A DNA stretch of 64,000 nucleotides, taken from assembly GCA_963745075.1 (NCBI GenBank), contig CAVUWV010000020.1:172280-236279 (forward strand), in the 5' to 3' direction. The DNA is from Candidatus Hydrogenedentota bacterium. Lineage in GTDB: Bacteria > Hydrogenedentota > Hydrogenedentia > Hydrogenedentales > SLHB01. Positions within the stretch are counted from its first letter, which is position 1. Each line of letters begins with the position of its first letter. Shown piece by piece: positions 1,614 through 52,300 of the stretch. The position numbers and the translations under genes are program-made. Under the pieces are notes generated by a model. It saw only the letters and a list, made by a program, of their open reading frames with translations. It was not told where the DNA came from and ran no database searches.

Positions 1614-3494
1614 ATGGGCGTCGATTCGGTTACCGTGACCTTTGAGCCGCAAGGCCGGGCCGTGCGCGTGCACCCGGGGGTGACGGTGCGAGAAGCAGCA
1701 GCCCGGGCGGGGGTCTTTCTGGACTATCCGTGTGGGGGGCAGGGCACCTGTGGCAAGTGCCGCGTTCGGATGTCGGCGGATTCGGGGCAATTGACCTCTG
1801 TCGAGCGCGACCTCCTGCCGGAATCGGAACGGCGACATGGCATGCGGCTGGCGTGTCAATGTGTGGTCAAGGATTCTTTGACTGTTACCGTGCCGGAAAC
1901 CTCGCTTCTCGCGTCGTCCTACAAGATCCTTTCCGAAGCGTCGGCCACGACGCACGCGGCCGACGATCCGCCGATACGAAAGCAATTGGTAAACCTCCCG
2001 ACTCCAGTATTGGCCGACGATTGCGCGGATTTCGAACGGCTGCAACGGGTCCTGGGACCTGTCTCGGCCGACCTCGATTTGCTGGCGGCATTACCGGCCT
2101 TCCTTCGCACACATGGGTTTTCAGGAACGGCAGTTGTCGCGGACGGTCGCCTCCTCGATGTGGAATCTGACGATACGGCGGCATCGTGCCACGTGGCGGC
2201 GGTGGACATCGGCACCACGACGCTGGTGGCGGCGTTGCTCGATTTGGTTACGGGAAATGAGCTTGCCCGCGTGTCGCGGATGAATCCCCAAACGAGCCTG
2301 GGGGACGACGTGCTTACCCGGATTCTGCATGCCCGCGAGGGCGGCGACGGGCTTCGGGAATTGCAGCGCGACGTGGTCTTGGCGGTGGATGCAATGTTGG
2401 CCGAACTCGCAGCGCAGGCCGGTATTCACGCCGCTGACATTTACGAAGTCACGGTCGCGGGAAACACCACGATGCAGCATTTGTTCGCTGGTCTGGATCC
2501 GAGCGCTCTTGGCGAGATCCCCTTTGCACCGGCCATCAGCGCGCCGATGCAGATTCCCGCCGAAGGGCTGGGGTTGACGATCCACGCGCGGGGAATCGTG
2601 CATGTTTTTCCAGTCATCGGTGGTTTTGTCGGCGGAGACACGGTGGCGGGCTTGCTCGCTACGGACTTGGATCAGGCGGCTGCGCCAACGTTGCTCATCG
2701 ACATCGGAACCAACGGGGAACTGGTTCTCCAGAAAGACGGGGAATTGTGGGCTACATCCTGCGCGGCAGGCCCGGCATTCGAGGGCGCCCGCATCGCCCA
2801 CGGTATGCGCGCGGCGGCCGGCGCGATCGAGTCCGTGTCCTTTAACGGAGACGTACGGTGTGAAACAATTGGAGACGCGACGCCGGTCGGCATCTGCGGT
2901 TCGGGGTTGATCGACGCGGCGGCTGGTTTGCTGCGATCGGGTATCGTCCTTCCTCAAGGTTTGATGCTGGACCGGGACCAGGCGCCGGAGACCGTACCGG
3001 CATCGATTCGTGAACGAATCGTTGACGGGCCGAAGGGTCCCGAGTTCGTGTTGGTGTCGGGCCACGAATCTGCAACGGGACATCCGATCGTGATTACGCA
3101 GGTGGACATGCGCGAACTGCAACTTGCGACCGCCGCCATTCGATCCGGCACGGCGATATTGCTGAAGCGGGCCGGTATTGGCGCCTCCGATTTACAGCAC
3201 GTGCTTGTCGCCGGCGCCTTTGGGAACTACGTGCGCTGTGAGAACGCACAGCGCATCGGGTTGCTGCCACACAATGTTGCGCCGTCTCGCCTGACCTTTG
3301 TCGGCAACGCATCCCTGGCGGGAGCGCGCCGGGCGGCGGTTTCTTCCGGGGCGCGGGGATTGGCGGAGTCCTTGGCGCGGCGTACGCGGCACATCGACTT
3401 ATCCCTGGATCCGGAGTTCCACGAAACCTACGTGGAATGCATGTTCTTTCCCGAGGACGAAGCTACAGAAACGTTGCCCGCGGACCATCCATAA
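1614..3494 (+). CDS. ASKHA-domain protein with N-terminal [2Fe-2S] ferredoxin (RACo-type reductive activator of corrinoid proteins)
   Basis: CGGQGTCGKC...RLACQ ferredoxin motif; VDIGTTT, GNTTMQHL, GGFVGGD, IDIGTNGE, CAAGPAFEG, GICGSGLID, AGAFG and GNASLAGA motifs. Confidence 0.92.
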   Translation: MGVDSVTVTFEPQGRAVRVHPGVTVREAAARAGVFLDYPCGGQGTCGKCRVRMSADSGQLTSVERDLLPESERRHGMRLACQCVVKDSLTVTVPETSLLASSYKILSEASATTHAADDPPIRKQLVNLPTPVLADDCADFERLQRVLGPVSADLDLLAALPAFLRTHGFSGTAVVADGRLLDVESDDTAASCHVAAVDIGTTTLVAALLDLVTGNELARVSRMNPQTSLGDDVLTRILHAREGGDGLRELQRDVVLAVDAMLAELAAQAGIHAADIYEVTVAGNTTMQHLFAGLDPSALGEIPFAPAISAPMQIPAEGLGLTIHARGIVHVFPVIGGFVGGDTVAGLLATDLDQAAAPTLLIDIGTNGELVLQKDGELWATSCAAGPAFEGARIAHGMRAAAGAIESVSFNGDVRCETIGDATPVGICGSGLIDAAAGLLRSGIVLPQGLMLDRDQAPETVPASIRERIVDGPKGPEFVLVSGHESATGHPIVITQVDMRELQLATAAIRSGTAILLKRAGIGASDLQHVLVAGAFGNYVRCENAQRIGLLPHNVAPSRLTFVGNASLAGARRAAVSSGARGLAESLARRTRHIDLSLDPEFHETYVECMFFPEDEATETLPADHP

Positions 3495-4073
3495 TCTCGA
3501 AGAGGTTGTGCCCGATCGGAACGCAGGAGGCGATCCAGCCAAACGATCGGCAAACCCAGGACGTTCTGGTAACATCCGTCATACGCCGCGACCAGGAGAC
3601 TGCCGGGGCCATCCACCGTGTACGCGCCCGCGCGATCGATCGGCTTCACGGCGTGAACGAAGTGGGTGATTTCATCCTCGTGAAGCTCGCGAAACGTCAC
3701 CCGGGTGGTTTCACTGCCTCTCCACGTGCCGGCCCGTTTGCGTGTCAACGACCGCGAGACCGGTGATGACCTCATGGGTGCGGCCGGACAATTGGGTGAG
3801 CATCGCGCGCGCGTCGTCCAAATCGCGTGGCTTTGAGAGGATTTGATCGCCGAGAAAGACCAGCGTATCGGCGGCGATGACGAGGGCAGGTCCGTCGATT
3901 CCGCGCGCGACGCCGTCGCGTTTTGCCACGGCGTTGGCAATCACGATTTCTGCGGGAACTTCCCCGTCGTCGACCTCCTCTACCCCGCTCTTCACGACCG
4001 TTACGTCGATGCCTAACGCGGAGAGCAGTGCGTAACGCCGCGGGGATGCGGATGCGAGAACGATAGGGATCAC
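3463..4073 (-). CDS. maf: Maf family nucleoside triphosphate pyrophosphatase (frameshifted near 3715, probably also near 3515)
   Basis: IVLASASPRR, IAADTLV and LSGRTHEVITG in ORF 3711-4115 continue as TTRVTFREL...DRAGAY...GCYQNVLGLP in ORF 3428-3940. GTG at 4073 overlaps the upstream stop; the 3' end is uncertain. Confidence 0.85.
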
Positions 4074-48420: not shown

Positions 48421-48619
48421 CGTCCCCCCATTTTTCGACTTCCCAGTGATGCGCGACAATTAATTATCTTGTTACTCGCCAGGCAATTCAATCTGTCGCG
48501 GAAGCCACCGTGATTCGCAATATGCAGCGATTCGTGTTTGCAGACCGGCACGACTAAAATGAAGTCGGGCGTTTGCCAATGTGGGGGAAACCGGCCAACC
48601 AGATTCAACGGAGGCAATC

Positions 48620-49463
48620 ATGATCGAGCTGGGCATGCACACGGACAACTGGCGCCCGCTGAGCGGGGGATTCAATCAGGCGGCGGAGACCGCGGTCAAG
48701 TACGGCATTCAACACCTCGAATTTGTCGCGATCCACGGCCAGTACTTCATCCAAGCCATGGGTTATGAGCCGGGCATTTCGTTGGAATCCAATCCGCGCG
48801 CGTTGAAACGCTACTGTGACAAGCGGGGCCTGAAGATCTCGCAGATCGACGGCGCGTACCCGCTCATGGGGCCCGACGGCTCGACCTACGGCGTGCAGTA
48901 CGTCCGGCAATGCATTCGCTTTGCGGCGGAACTGGACTGCCCCATGGTGGACACCACCGACGGCGCTTCCACCATCGAGGGCCTCAGCCGCGACGAAGTC
49001 TTCCGCATCACCTGCGACAACTATCGGCAGGTGCCTGTCCTGGGCGGAGGACTACAAGATCGTCATCAACGTCGAGCCGCACGGCCCCTATACGAATGAC
49101 GGGGAGTTCATGCTCAAGCTGTTCAAGTATTTCGATTCCGAATGGCTGCGCTGCAATTTTGATACCGGCAATTCCTTCATCGCGGGCCACGACCCGCTGG
49201 AGTACCTGAAGACCTTGCGCCCGTACGTTTCGCACTGCCACATCAAGGATGTAAGCGAAGGGTTGGCCGCCGCCGCCCGCGGCGAAGACACCGGTATCGC
49301 GTGCAGCGAAGTCCCCATCGGCGGCGGCGTCAACGCCGGCAACATCACGAACTGCCTCGCCTTCCTGAACGAAACCAACTGGGACGGCGTCGTCTCCCTC
49401 GAATGCTACGGCTCCGACGAAAACATACAGAAGAGCGTGGAGTTCCTGCGCGCGTTGGTATAA
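48620..49463 (+). CDS. Sugar phosphate isomerase/epimerase (TIM barrel; frameshift near 49030)
   Basis: GGAGG RBS before ATG 48620; the first half joins INVEPHG, NFDTGN, HIKD and VSLEC in ORF 48921-49463. Confidence 0.85.
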
Positions 49464-49527
49464 GCGCTGATCGGTGTCCCTGGGAGCGCCAGGCCGTCAT
49501 CCTCGCGAAGGCGGGGCCAGCCTAGTT

Positions 49528-49658
49528 CACTGGGAGCGCCTGGCTCCGGCCTGGCGTGCTTCGGAGGAATGACGGCTGCAAACACAGCGCAGTCGTTGCA
49601 GCGAGTTACGCGCACGCTCCGAAGCACGCCACGCTAGAGCGAGGCGCTCCCAGTGGGG
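49528..49658 (-). repeat. REP doublet (REPIN-like hairpin) copy 1, inverted relative to copies 2 and 3
   Basis: CACTGGGAGCGCC...GGCGTGCTTCGGAG / CTCCGAAGCACGCC...GGCGCTCCCAGTG; its reverse complement aligns with 50406-50540. A partial unit CTGGGAGCGCCAGGC lies at 49480-49494. Confidence 0.9.
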
Positions 49659-50353
49659 CCATCAGTGTGGCCGTCTTCCAAGTGTATGCGGGCGCTGCTC
49701 CAGCGCCAGGCTTCGGGTGTAGCGCACAGGCTCGCCGCGGTTGGATTGTTGTGAACATACGCCATGACGGCGTGAAAATGTCTTTGGTCGCGGACATATC
49801 GGTCCCGGTATTCGCGATACCACACATGACGTGCCGAACCCATTCCGGGAAGCACACGCATCATCGGGATTAGCCGCCTTCCGGTGTAGGATTTCCAAGT
49901 TGTGACCACACGCGCCAGCTTCCACCCCCGTATCTGTTCAAAAAGGACATGGACATGGTTAGGCATGATCGCCCATGCAAGGAGACGGTAGCGAACGCCA
50001 TCGAAATACAGAAGCGCGTCTTGTGTCAGTTCGGCCGCTCGTGGCTCCCGAAGCAAACAGCATCCGTGCCCCGCGTCGATCCAGGCCTCGATACGCTTGT
50101 AGCGCTCGACCTCCCGCTCGGATTCCGGCATCTCGCGGATTTCATCTTCGAAACGATCGAGGACGACCTTCGGCAAGCTGTCCGCGAGGTGAAACGTCAC
50201 ATGTTGAATGGAGCCCGGCGAGTCGAAGTGCGGGATGTAGCCGCGCGAATGCCAATGCGGTTGTGCGGAACTGTCATGGTCCTGCCTGAGGACAGCGCGA
50301 CCTCGGTATTCGCCGGACTGGTGCCCCACACCTTCACGCACCTCCCCCATCAT
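49634..50353 (-). mobile_element. rayT: REP-associated tyrosine transposase (RAYT/TnpA-REP; IS200-like HUH Y1)
   Basis: RGYIPH, HVTFHLADSLP, WAIMPNHVHVL (HUH), WKSYT, W.REY.DRYVRD, YVHNNP (catalytic Tyr), WRWSSA; GGAGG RBS; flanked by REP doublets. Confidence 0.9.
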
Positions 50354-50405
50354 CGATATCCTCCCTTGGGGCCGTCACACTATTGCATGCCATAGTAACA
50401 TATCA

Positions 50406-50540
50406 CCCCACTGGGAGCGCCATGCACCAGCGCGGCGTGCTTCGGAGCGTTCAAGTCACTCCCTGCAACAGCCGCCTTACCGCCGTAACCGTCACTCCTC
50501 CGAATCTTCGCCAGGCTGGTGCCTGGCGCTCCCAGTGGGG
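50406..50540 (+). repeat. REP doublet (REPIN-like hairpin) copy 2
   Basis: CCCCACTGGGAGCGCCA ... TGGCGCTCCCAGTGGGG perfect terminal inverted repeat. Confidence 0.9.
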
Positions 50541-50640
50541 GCATCCACGATTGCAAGCCGACCCACTGCAACGCCCGGCACCTAAAGGGTAGGAGGATGT
50601 TTGCTATGGGTTACCCTGAAATACCCCCGAGGACAACACC

Positions 50641-52041
50641 ATGCCGGCGGTAGTGGAACGCAAACCAGGCCTCGATCCCGGCGTGGATTTGCGACAGGCG
50701 GCGGCGACGTTGTGTACCGATGTCGCGAATGCGGGACGGTTTGCGGAGGCGGCCGGTTCGCTCATCCGGTTTGTCCCGGAATGGGGCTGGCTGCGGTGGG
50801 ACGGGCGGCGTTGGGCGCGGGACACCCTGGGCGTCGTGCGGAAGATGGCGCAAGATGTGCACACCTTCGTGCGGGCCGAGGCCGCGGCGGCGGAGAACCC
50901 CCAGGTCGCGGACGCCCTGTGGAAACACGCCAAATACACGGCGAAAAGCTCGGCCATCACGGCCTTTCTACGCGAGACGGAACCCATGTGCGCGGAACGG
51001 GCGGAGGTCTTCGACCGGATACCGGATCGCGTGAATTGCCGCAACTGCACGCTGGACTTCAGCCGGATTGACGGCGATCTACCCCATCACGGCGACCATT
51101 CAAGCGCCAACTATCTCACGCGGATGATTCCCCACGACTGGCACCTGGGTGCACGGCGCGTTGCATGGGAGAACTTCCTCGAAGACGTGTTGCCGGATGC
51201 GGAAGTGCGGGCTTTCGTGCAACGGGCGCTCGGCTATTCCTTGCTGGGCCACACGCGGGAGCAGTGCTTCTTCATCCTCCACGGCACAGGGTGCAACGGG
51301 AAATCGGTGTTTCTGAACACCATCAAGGCCGTGCTCGGCGAGGACTACGCCCGGCAGGCCGACCCGGAATGTTTCATGGCGGGCCGCGGTCCCGCGACGC
51401 GCAACGACCTGGCGCGGCTGCAGGGCGTGCGGTTTGTCACCGCCGTCGAATCGGGCGACGGGCACCGTCTCGACGAGTCGCTGATTAAATCCATCACCGG
51501 CGGCGATGCCGTGCAAGCGCGATTCCTCTATCGCGAATACTTCGAGTTCGTGCCGCAGTTCAAGCTGTGGCTGGCGACCAACCATCCGCCGCGCATTCGG
51601 GGCACGGACCACGCCATCTGGCGGCGCGTCATGCTGGTGCCGTTCACGGTGACCATCCCCGGCGACCGGCGCGACCCGGCGTTGCAGGACACGTTGCTCC
51701 GCGAGGCGGAAGGCATCCTCGATTGGCTCGTCGAAGGATGCGTCGCCTACAGCAAATACGGACTCGACCCGCCGCCGCCCGTCTTGGCGGCAACCCAGGC
51801 GTACCGCGATTCGGAAGACACGGTCGGCCAATTCCTGGCCGACCGCGCCGTGCTGGAACCCCACGCCCAATGCGCGAAGAAGGTCATGTATGCCGCGTAT
51901 ACCCAGTGGTGCGAACGCAATGGCGAGCGCCCCGCCAGTCAACGGGCGTTTTCGAAAGTCCTCCAATCCCACGGCCTCGACGAGTACCGCGGTTCCGGCG
52001 GCCAACGCTTCTGGATTGGCGTCCGGCTCGTCCTCGAGTGA
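50641..52041 (+). CDS. Phage/plasmid P4-family 'primase' C-terminal part: D5_N, SF3 helicase and winged helix, with no primase domain
   Basis: TDVANAGRF...W..WDGRRW (D5_N), GTGCNGKS (Walker A), RFVTAVE (Walker B), IKSITGGD...ARFLY, LATNH.P, DHAIWRR, YTQWC..NGE; GAGGA RBS. Confidence 0.9.
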   Translation: MPAVVERKPGLDPGVDLRQAAATLCTDVANAGRFAEAAGSLIRFVPEWGWLRWDGRRWARDTLGVVRKMAQDVHTFVRAEAAAAENPQVADALWKHAKYTAKSSAITAFLRETEPMCAERAEVFDRIPDRVNCRNCTLDFSRIDGDLPHHGDHSSANYLTRMIPHDWHLGARRVAWENFLEDVLPDAEVRAFVQRALGYSLLGHTREQCFFILHGTGCNGKSVFLNTIKAVLGEDYARQADPECFMAGRGPATRNDLARLQGVRFVTAVESGDGHRLDESLIKSITGGDAVQARFLYREYFEFVPQFKLWLATNHPPRIRGTDHAIWRRVMLVPFTVTIPGDRRDPALQDTLLREAEGILDWLVEGCVAYSKYGLDPPPPVLAATQAYRDSEDTVGQFLADRAVLEPHAQCAKKVMYAAYTQWCERNGERPASQRAFSKVLQSHGLDEYRGSGGQRFWIGVRLVLE

Positions 52042-52141
52042 CAAGAGTGACGCTAGTGACACATGGTTCAGAAATCGATCGCGTAGGAGATGTTATAGAG
52101 CAAAGAATGGAATATAGCGTCACAAACGACACAGCGCCACT
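52037..52141. other. Putative replication-origin-like iteron set
   Basis: AGTGAC three times at 9 bp period (52037, 52046, 52055), an AT-richer spacer, then inverted CGTCAC/CGACAC/CGCCAC (52118, 52127, 52135); GTGACGCTA and TAGCGTCAC are exact reverse complements. Confidence 0.55.
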
Positions 52142-52269
52142 GGGAGCGCCATGCACCAGCGTGGCGGGGTACGGAGTGTGCAAATCCTTCGGTATAAGGA
52201 CTACGTTGCCTTTGCGACAGTCACTCCTCCGACTCATCGCCAGGCTGGTGCCTGGCGCTCCCAGTGGGG
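52137..52269 (+). repeat. REP doublet (REPIN-like hairpin) copy 3, direct repeat of copy 2
   Basis: CCACTGGGAGCGCCATGCACCAGCG ... GTCACTCCTCCGA..TCGCCAGGCTGGTGCCTGGCGCTCCCAGTGGGG, arms nearly identical to copy 2. Confidence 0.9.
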
Positions 52270-52271
52270 TC

Positions 52272-52300
52272 TTGACACTCACGGGGCGCGGTTCTATGAT
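52272..52300 (+). promoter_or_regulatory. Near-consensus sigma70 promoter
   Basis: TTGACA (52272-52277), 17 bp, TATGAT (52295-52300). Confidence 0.7.

Follow-up and report, generated by a model that had tools for sequence, protein, structure and literature searches.

How do a transposase gene and a satellite-type helicase gene come to lie together among three hairpin repeats, and do they form a single element? The question is raised by positions 49480..52270 of a 64,000-nucleotide stretch of DNA, referred to here as the window, from a Candidatus Hydrogenedentota bacterium (assembly GCA_963745075.1, contig CAVUWV010000020.1, positions 172,280 to 236,279; G000:C20:172280-236279 in our numbering, G000 being the source genome, a 6.8-Mb assembly with 0.8% contamination). 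An initial annotation had described there a gene for a REP-associated tyrosine transposase (RAYT; rayT) on the minus strand, a superfamily 3 (SF3) helicase gene on the plus strand, iterons, and three hairpin-forming doublets of the repetitive extragenic palindrome (REP), known as REPINs, and had proposed that the two genes constitute a mobile or replicative element. All of these parts are present and their coordinates are confirmed (Table 1), as are the catalytic motifs reported as intact, namely HVH and Tyr of the RAYT and Walker A, Walker B, motif C and DHAIWRR of the helicase. With regard to the element itself, we lean towards a smaller unit, a cassette of 1.57 kb made of a conserved leader, the helicase gene and an iteron origin, which would be a stripped-down phage-satellite replicon moving by recombination between REPINs, with the RAYT as a facultative partner.

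The central evidence is a second copy of the whole arrangement in the same genome, at G000:C24:14290-17240 (-) (L001:5290-8240, minus strand), where order and orientation are the same and the neighbours, a dehydrogenase-like gene and a GH38 mannosidase gene, are unlike those in the window. The proportion of synonymous sites that differ between the copies (pS) is 0.12 for the helicase (bootstrap 0.086-0.159) and 0.57 for the RAYT (0.46-0.67), with disjoint intervals, and fourfold sites differ at 22/260 positions in the former and 36/78 in the latter. Expressed as synonymous and nonsynonymous divergence (dS and dN), the helicase copies are separated by 0.13 and 0.008, at 96% nucleotide identity, and the RAYT cores by 1.05 and 0.07. 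Because the synonymous divergence of the two genes differs, the halves of the arrangement were not inherited together, and the co-divergence expected of a fixed pair fails. High identity between the copies begins abruptly at 50562 and amounts to 95% in the leader, 96% in the gene and 85% in the origin. The C24 helicase carries a one-base insertion in a run of G, which is likely an assembly error and not decay, because a like insertion splits the sugar-phosphate isomerase/epimerase gene of the window (48581-49463) relative to the congener G001, itself probably an assembly error. Other C24 open reading frames (ORFs) look similarly broken.

The spacers inside the REPINs add a second line of evidence. 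Spacer X, located left of the helicase in the window, is 88% identical to the tandem unit that follows the origin on its right in the C24 copy (X'), and this pair ranks first among 300 spacer pairs, for which the median is 59% and the 95th percentile 73%; the 12% difference of the permuted spacer matches the 12% synonymous difference of the helicase. Since spacer X sits on opposite sides of the helicase in the two copies, a circular intermediate is suggested. Spacers X and Z share a 15-nt tail, CCGTCACTCCTCCGA. The C24 copy has triple REP arrays at both ends, and the tandem junctions in them are identical (CTCTT directly followed by CCCCACTGGG), which suggests, from the letters of the junctions, a site-specific joining step.

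The cassette is also found away from the RAYT. By DNA, near full-length copies occur only in the source genome (two) and in the congener G002, with a 5' remnant in G001, and a metagenome scan adds one close cassette, L210, in another context and on a contig that ends within its 3' part. Four different sites are thus occupied across the source genome (two), G002 and L210, the G001 remnant lying at the window's site. All cassettes have the left boundary motif in common, the intact ones keep the ribosome-binding site and a mini-ORF of 12-15 codons, every intact copy retains leader and origin together with the gene, and direct REPIN repeats bracket all three intact copies for which both flanks are known. 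The helicase dS relative to G002 is 0.92, about that of host genes (0.89, 1.24), and for this reason the cassette is as old as the genus, although the sites that it occupies differ. The G002 cassette has host genes on either side and is placed inside direct copies of a 430-570 bp composite doublet that belongs to another REP family (62 copies in G002); this composite REPIN is whole only around the cassette and is represented elsewhere by pieces of 93-165 bp (40 of 437 candidates scored). No RAYT is present within 4 kb of the G002 cassette, and the REP family that brackets it flanks a RAYT in G001. Single REPINs of the same family are located at orthologous sites in G002 (for the C20 site) and G004 (for the C24 site), as targets or scars would lie. 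In loci from five congeners, the gene upstream of the G002 site does not neighbour the TPR gene. The G002 composite repeat (L004:950-1380, 3060-3622) nests four or five palindrome types in one REP doublet, and one of these types resembles the REP of the source genome.

The layout of the cassette is that of a predicted origin placed directly after its initiator gene. Three AGTGAC iterons start at 52037, 52046 and 52055, the first within the last codons of the helicase, and are followed by a stretch of 64% AT and then by CGTCAC at 52118; the right-hand set consists of one exact and one degenerate site in the window and of two sites on C24. The leader mini-ORF has 15 codons in the window, where it overlaps the helicase start, and 12 codons in G002 and L210, where it is ATGA-coupled. 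A candidate sigma-70 promoter in the leader, TGCAAC-17-TAGGAG, was dropped, as the promoter scan omits it and AGGAGG reads better as a ribosome-binding site. The left-boundary CTGCAAC (50562-50572) recurs inside spacer X (50459-50468) and in hairpin 1, and TGCAAC is, probably by chance, identical to the SaPI5 iteron (10.64898/2026.10.17.759575). Another GTGAC repeat array (GGTGACAA, four times), unrelated to the window helicase by tblastn, is found at G000:C36:353916-354064 and is possibly the origin of a different element.

The helicase matches the D5_N, DUF5906 and Pox_D5 profiles, with TIGR01613 above its cut-off, and contains GTGCNGKS at 215, FVTAVES at 265, WLATN at 310 and DHAIWRR at 323. 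It covers only the C-terminal 440 amino acids of profiles of 750-850 amino acids, the primase domain being absent, and its length of 466 amino acids recurs in six of the eight further members of the two nearest clusters. Its structural model (pLDDT 85) aligns with D5-family helicase structures along most of the chain (TM 0.62-0.77). By analogy, the protein is predicted to be a self-loading initiator. Relatives at 35-50% identity reside in satellites or their remains, accompanied by an integrase, excisionase, terminase or tRNA sites, and each has its own opposed repeats downstream of the gene; in a quick tree, the cassette sequences form a clade (support 99) among primase-less and primase-fused forms. 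In viral contigs, broad helicase alignments reach generic P4/D5 primases at 34-42% and a tight alignment a single one at 36%, while all 464 plasmid records retrieved fall below 60%. A small element near tRNA-Met in another genome (L021:5540-9400 in G040) also combines a primase-less helicase with tandem 62-bp repeats, a 217-amino-acid ORF, opposed iteron sets and, judging from the letters, an apparent integrase fragment.

Among known systems, the closest in replication layout are the Staphylococcus aureus pathogenicity islands (SaPIs) and other phage-inducible chromosomal islands (PICIs). The Rep of a SaPI is an SF3 helicase capable of self-loading, and the opposed iterons that its winged-helix domain binds flank an AT-rich core immediately after the gene (PMC9371898, 10.64898/2026.10.17.759575). 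The cassette shares with Rep1 and PriRep5 the SF3 ATPase, a C-terminal domain of winged-helix type, an origin right after the stop codon and opposed iterons with an AT-rich core, and this layout supports, at the level of sequence, the earlier proposal that helicase and iterons form a replicon module. It differs in having neither primase, integrase, excisionase, regulator, packaging genes such as terminase, nor a tRNA attachment (att) site, in being bounded by REPINs, and in an origin of about 100 bp, against about 300 bp in SaPIs. Because the Rep and origin layout matches that of SaPIs, the cassette would work like a SaPI replicon, but it is no PICI.

The RAYT scores 34.1 bits with PF01797 (cut-off 23), 70.9 bits with NF047646, below its cut-off of 80, and 20.4 bits with the IS200-type TnpA profile NF033573, below its cut-off of 55. 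Its catalytic residues, H133VH135 and Y199 (the Tyr of YVHNNP), are invariant in 14 aligned sequences, and its stop codon lies inside hairpin 1. The single-stranded DNA hairpin folds of REPINs 1, 2 and 3 are significant (z = -9.3, -6.9 and -8.6, with 0/200 shuffles as good in each case). That REPINs 1 and 2 are inverted, as originally described, is true of the window, but their C24 equivalents are direct; REPINs 2 and 3 are direct repeats, as stated. The REPs also occur far beyond the locus: the source genome has 69 exact copies of the 13-nt core, 105 with one mismatch, and 29 doublet sites. Six of these doublets, three in the window and three in the C24 copy, each have another doublet within 0.9-1.8 kb, and the other 23 of the 29 have none within 13.5 kb. 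The module REP also flanks a RAYT in G034 that is 57% identical to that of the window, so that this REP and this RAYT appear to be cognate; a GTAG tetranucleotide is not visible where the module REP begins at its 5' end. The locus thus shows two features of a REPtron, a Y1 HUH protein and flanking doublets that are dispersed genome-wide. By their spacers, which bear iteron-like sites, the module REPINs are a family apart. Many non-module REPINs of this genome have a different spacer motif (ATCGAGGCTGCGCAATC-like), giving two REPIN spacer families.

In the movement that we favour for the cassette, the helicase would bind the AGTGAC iterons as a hexamer through its C-terminal domain and melt the origin as SaPI Reps do, relying on host primase and polymerase. 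Replication in place, or nicking and joining of the exposed REP strands by the RAYT, could then yield a circle of helicase, origin and one REPIN. Such a circle might re-enter another REPIN, with host recombination or RAYT strand transfer as the route and direct repeats as the outcome. The window order X-helicase-Y would follow from a crossover in the left REP arm, and the C24 order Z-helicase-X' from one in the shared 15-nt spacer tail. RAYT-flanking REPINs would be the best targets by homology and bear iteron-like sites, and the helicase may also open them for the RAYT. Joining could be performed by the RAYT or by host recombination, between which the evidence does not separate. Since RAYT-flanking REPINs are the most similar targets, two dockings beside a RAYT are explicable without a functional tie. 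The initial annotation had offered REPIN-mediated cargo capture as an alternative, and this alternative fits well.

Several observations weigh against the movement just described. From REPIN 2 to the leader, the copies have 17-21 nt of unrelated sequence (5/17 matches), and the origin-to-REP junction differs as well, which argues against a simple circle, because a circle should have carried both. The C24 insert also holds a 3-kb dehydrogenase-like gene that is not found in five congeners. Intact cassettes with both flanks known number three, in two genomes; no recognisable REPIN is present at the G001 remnant or in the upstream flank of L210; the iteron hexamer is absent from both flanking repeats in G002; and no RAYT of the bracketing REP family is found in G002, which is 93% complete. 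SaPI replication modules, as described in PMC9371898 and 10.64898/2026.10.17.759575, include a primase, and the cassette has none. In addition, the C20 interval, from the epimerase to the TAT-signal gene, contains other cargo and other REPs in every congener.

A more ambitious possibility, doubtful but worth naming, is a new class of element in which a satellite-type SF3 initiator loads at iteron sites within REPINs, with the RAYT acting as integrase/excisionase and the REPINs as att sites. Its starting point is the spacer motif. AGTGAC is uncommon genome-wide, at 1.9e-4 per nt or about 0.013 expected in any one spacer, and the hexamer occurs nine times in six of the eight module spacers, always oriented like the right-hand iterons of the origin, and in 0/21 other spacers of the source genome and 0/5 congener spacers. 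Conservation at the two positions of the motif is 0.89 and 0.93, compared with 0.69 across the middle of the spacer, where the best of 23 windows of 7 columns reaches 0.80. The motif is a lead and not proof, because the spacers share ancestry, so that their count is not independent, because it was noticed post hoc, and because one site, the second, overlaps the inner arm of a hairpin. Given these iteron-like sites, the helicase may open REP hairpins for the RAYT.

The same motif would be expected of an autonomous two-gene element, in which the helicase loads at the iteron-like REPIN sites and gives the RAYT single-stranded DNA, and the RAYT moves the whole unit; the two copies would then be old family members between which the helicase module was later exchanged. 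Such an element would account for the shared order and orientation and for a RAYT upstream region that is 81% identical in nucleotides between the copies. The RAYT paralogues themselves are 78% identical in amino acids and 79% in nucleotides, both are under purifying selection though RAYT duplication is described as rare (10.1101/119735), and five congeners have no match above 39% to the window RAYT. We nevertheless regard a two-gene element as unlikely, given the unequal fourfold differences, the G002 cassette without a RAYT, the genome-wide distribution of the REPs, the ordinary satellites in which more distant helicases reside and the absence of the pairing elsewhere, and in its fixed form, as initially proposed, it is not upheld.

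That absence was sought at several levels. Among 135 genomes of the phylum, 24 have a helicase match, 48 a RAYT match and 11 both; in the ten of these other than the source genome, helicase and RAYT matches are separated by more than 0.5 Mb or fall on different contigs, and in the 47 other genomes with this RAYT type no RAYT match is close to one for the helicase. A profile made from 21 RAYT sequences gives three matches in 229 helicase-bearing loci, all from the two copies in the source genome, in a search whose flanks extend 1-6 kb, whose loci are in part redundant and which could miss distant RAYT groups. No D5 domain appears among the 120 listed of 268 long RAYT relatives, the RAYT alignment finds no locus in viral contigs, and plasmids yield two weak RAYT matches. 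No circle and no element joint were found in short contigs of the same species from one sequencing run (0.14 share), where the depth of 2-4x is too low to weigh, and no report of a RAYT-helicase pairing was found in the literature searched, which largely excludes subscription journals. On the side of the RAYT, the protein search shows that the window-type subfamily is very often fused to DUF1156 DNA methylases; it also occurs joined to SNF2 helicases, metabolic enzymes and type I restriction subunits, in the manner of an in-frame insertion.

It is likewise improbable, in our view, that the cassette is passive, a satellite remnant or a helicase retained by the host in REP hot spots, duplicated through gene conversion or ordinary recombination of similar RAYT-flanking REPINs, its capacity to replicate playing no part. 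The variability of the C20 interval, which makes it an insertion hot spot and leaves no clean empty site between the epimerase and the promoter at 52272, is what passive cargo would predict, as are the satellite origin of the helicase family, the differing junctions, RAYT-flanking spacers that are the most alike in the genome, and the decayed 5' piece at the same site in G001, which is nearer the window copy (72%) than that of its sister G002 (65%). The helicase is, on the other hand, under purifying selection (dN/dS 0.06 between the copies and 0.12 relative to G002, with differences not clustered), origin and leader are kept with it, gene conversion would not shift spacer X to the other side, and G002 has an independent, locus-specific REPIN duplication. 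Finally, strain mixing or repeat mis-joining in the assembly, to which the single-base homopolymer insertions in the epimerase and the C24 helicase might point, is a very improbable source of the second copy or the permuted spacer, as the copies differ by about 50 mostly synonymous, evenly spread changes, lie on long contigs with flanks syntenic in congeners, come from an assembly with very low contamination, and have a counterpart of the same design in a second species.

The combination of HUH nuclease, helicase and neighbouring hairpins is known from the Reps of parvoviruses and CRESS-DNA viruses, from Helitrons, from IS91 and from Replitrons. Here, by contrast, the two functions reside in separate, divergently transcribed genes of different ages, the nuclease is a Y1 transposase and not a rolling-circle replication Rep, the helicase is a D5-type initiator with an iteron origin, and neither fusion, among the long RAYT relatives listed, nor joint inheritance of nuclease and helicase is found, the pS intervals being disjoint (0.086-0.159 vs 0.46-0.67) and the pairing seen, among the genomes and loci searched, only in the source genome.

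With REPIN-RAYT systems (PMC3333891, PMC8266576, PMC3337134, PMC6006769) the locus shares the Y1 HUH gene, cognate flanking doublets, genome-wide REPs, tandem REP-spacer units and the proposed capture of neighbouring genes, and it differs from them in that the cargo is a replicon, that it lies beside each of two RAYT paralogues, and that the spacers form an iteron-bearing family. In E. coli, single-stranded REP arrays are both cut and joined by TnpA-REP, and proposals for such systems include the excision of circles, amplification in tandem and the capture of adjacent genes (PMC3333891), although REPtrons seemingly do not move as units (PMC3333891, PMC8266576). Mobile units landing on REPs are also known from the IS110-family insertion sequences ISPpu9 and ISPpu10, with circular intermediates reported for ISPpu9 (PMC1525189); these encode their own recombinase and no replicon, whereas the cassette encodes no recombinase. 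Each part is known separately; a REPIN-bracketed replicon without primase or integrase was not found in the literature searched.

If the cassette does move in this way, integrase-free recombination between hairpins would be an undescribed route for a replicon; put moderately, a replicon of about 1.6 kb would have lasted for the age of the genus and changed its site without an integrase, with dispersed hairpin repeats as landing pads. The locus bears on three questions, the source of the single-stranded REP substrates of RAYTs, the amplification of REPIN arrays and the duplication of RAYT genes (PMC3333891, PMC8266576, 10.1101/119735), and a helicase that opens REPINs, if true, would supply the single-stranded hairpins that RAYTs need, as a bacterial counterpart, from separate genes, of the HUH-plus-SF3 pairing of parvoviruses. 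With its two small genes and three hairpins, the system is compact enough for every step to be tested with synthetic DNA in E. coli.

Table 1. Features of the RAYT-helicase interval and its right limit, in window coordinates.
Feature	Position	Strand	Remarks
Chimeric REP	49477..49525	+	5' half of module REP joined to one unit of another dispersed repeat family
REPIN 1 (REP doublet)	49528..49655	.	overlaps rayT 3' end
rayT (RAYT / TnpA-REP, Y1 HUH nuclease)	49634..50353	-	239 aa; H133-V-H135, Y199
REPIN 2, spacer X	50406..50540	.	two GTCACT (iteron complement) at 50455 and 50491
Conserved cassette leader	50562..50640	+	boundary motif CC(A/C)CTGCAAC, AGGAGG at 50591, mini-ORF from 50606
Primase-less D5/P4-family SF3 helicase with C-terminal Pox_D5 (winged-helix-type) domain	50641..52041	+	466 aa
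Predicted origin	52036..52132	+	AGTGAC x3, AT-rich core 52067-52116, opposed CGTCAC and CGACAC
REPIN 3	52137..52267	.	direct repeat of REPIN 2 (79%); one GTCACT at 52220
Host sigma-70-like promoter TTGACA-17-TATGAT	52272..52300	+	right limit; outside the element; kept in congeners

The remaining features of the interval are minor. The promoter that had been placed at 52272 is found there, and the statement that no integrase or capsid gene is present agrees with the ORF list and the profile scans of the interval; a tRNA scan of the interval and a search for Rfam matches at the locus were also negative. The chimeric REP at 49477-49525 has 23 BLAST matches, counting itself, spread over 9 contigs, and its own hairpin is not significant (z 0.14). 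The cargo of the C20 interval in congeners (L011:140-2330 in G001; L278 and L344 in G004; L299 in G002; L340 in G005) includes a HicAB-like toxin-antitoxin pair, an oxidoreductase-like ORF, other REP families and the helicase remnant. Two divergent RAYT genes lie 2.6 kb apart at G094:C12:256074-259822, each with an internal TGA, and a cluster of REP half-units, including four tandem repeats of about 130 bp, is located at G000:C24:447259-453908.

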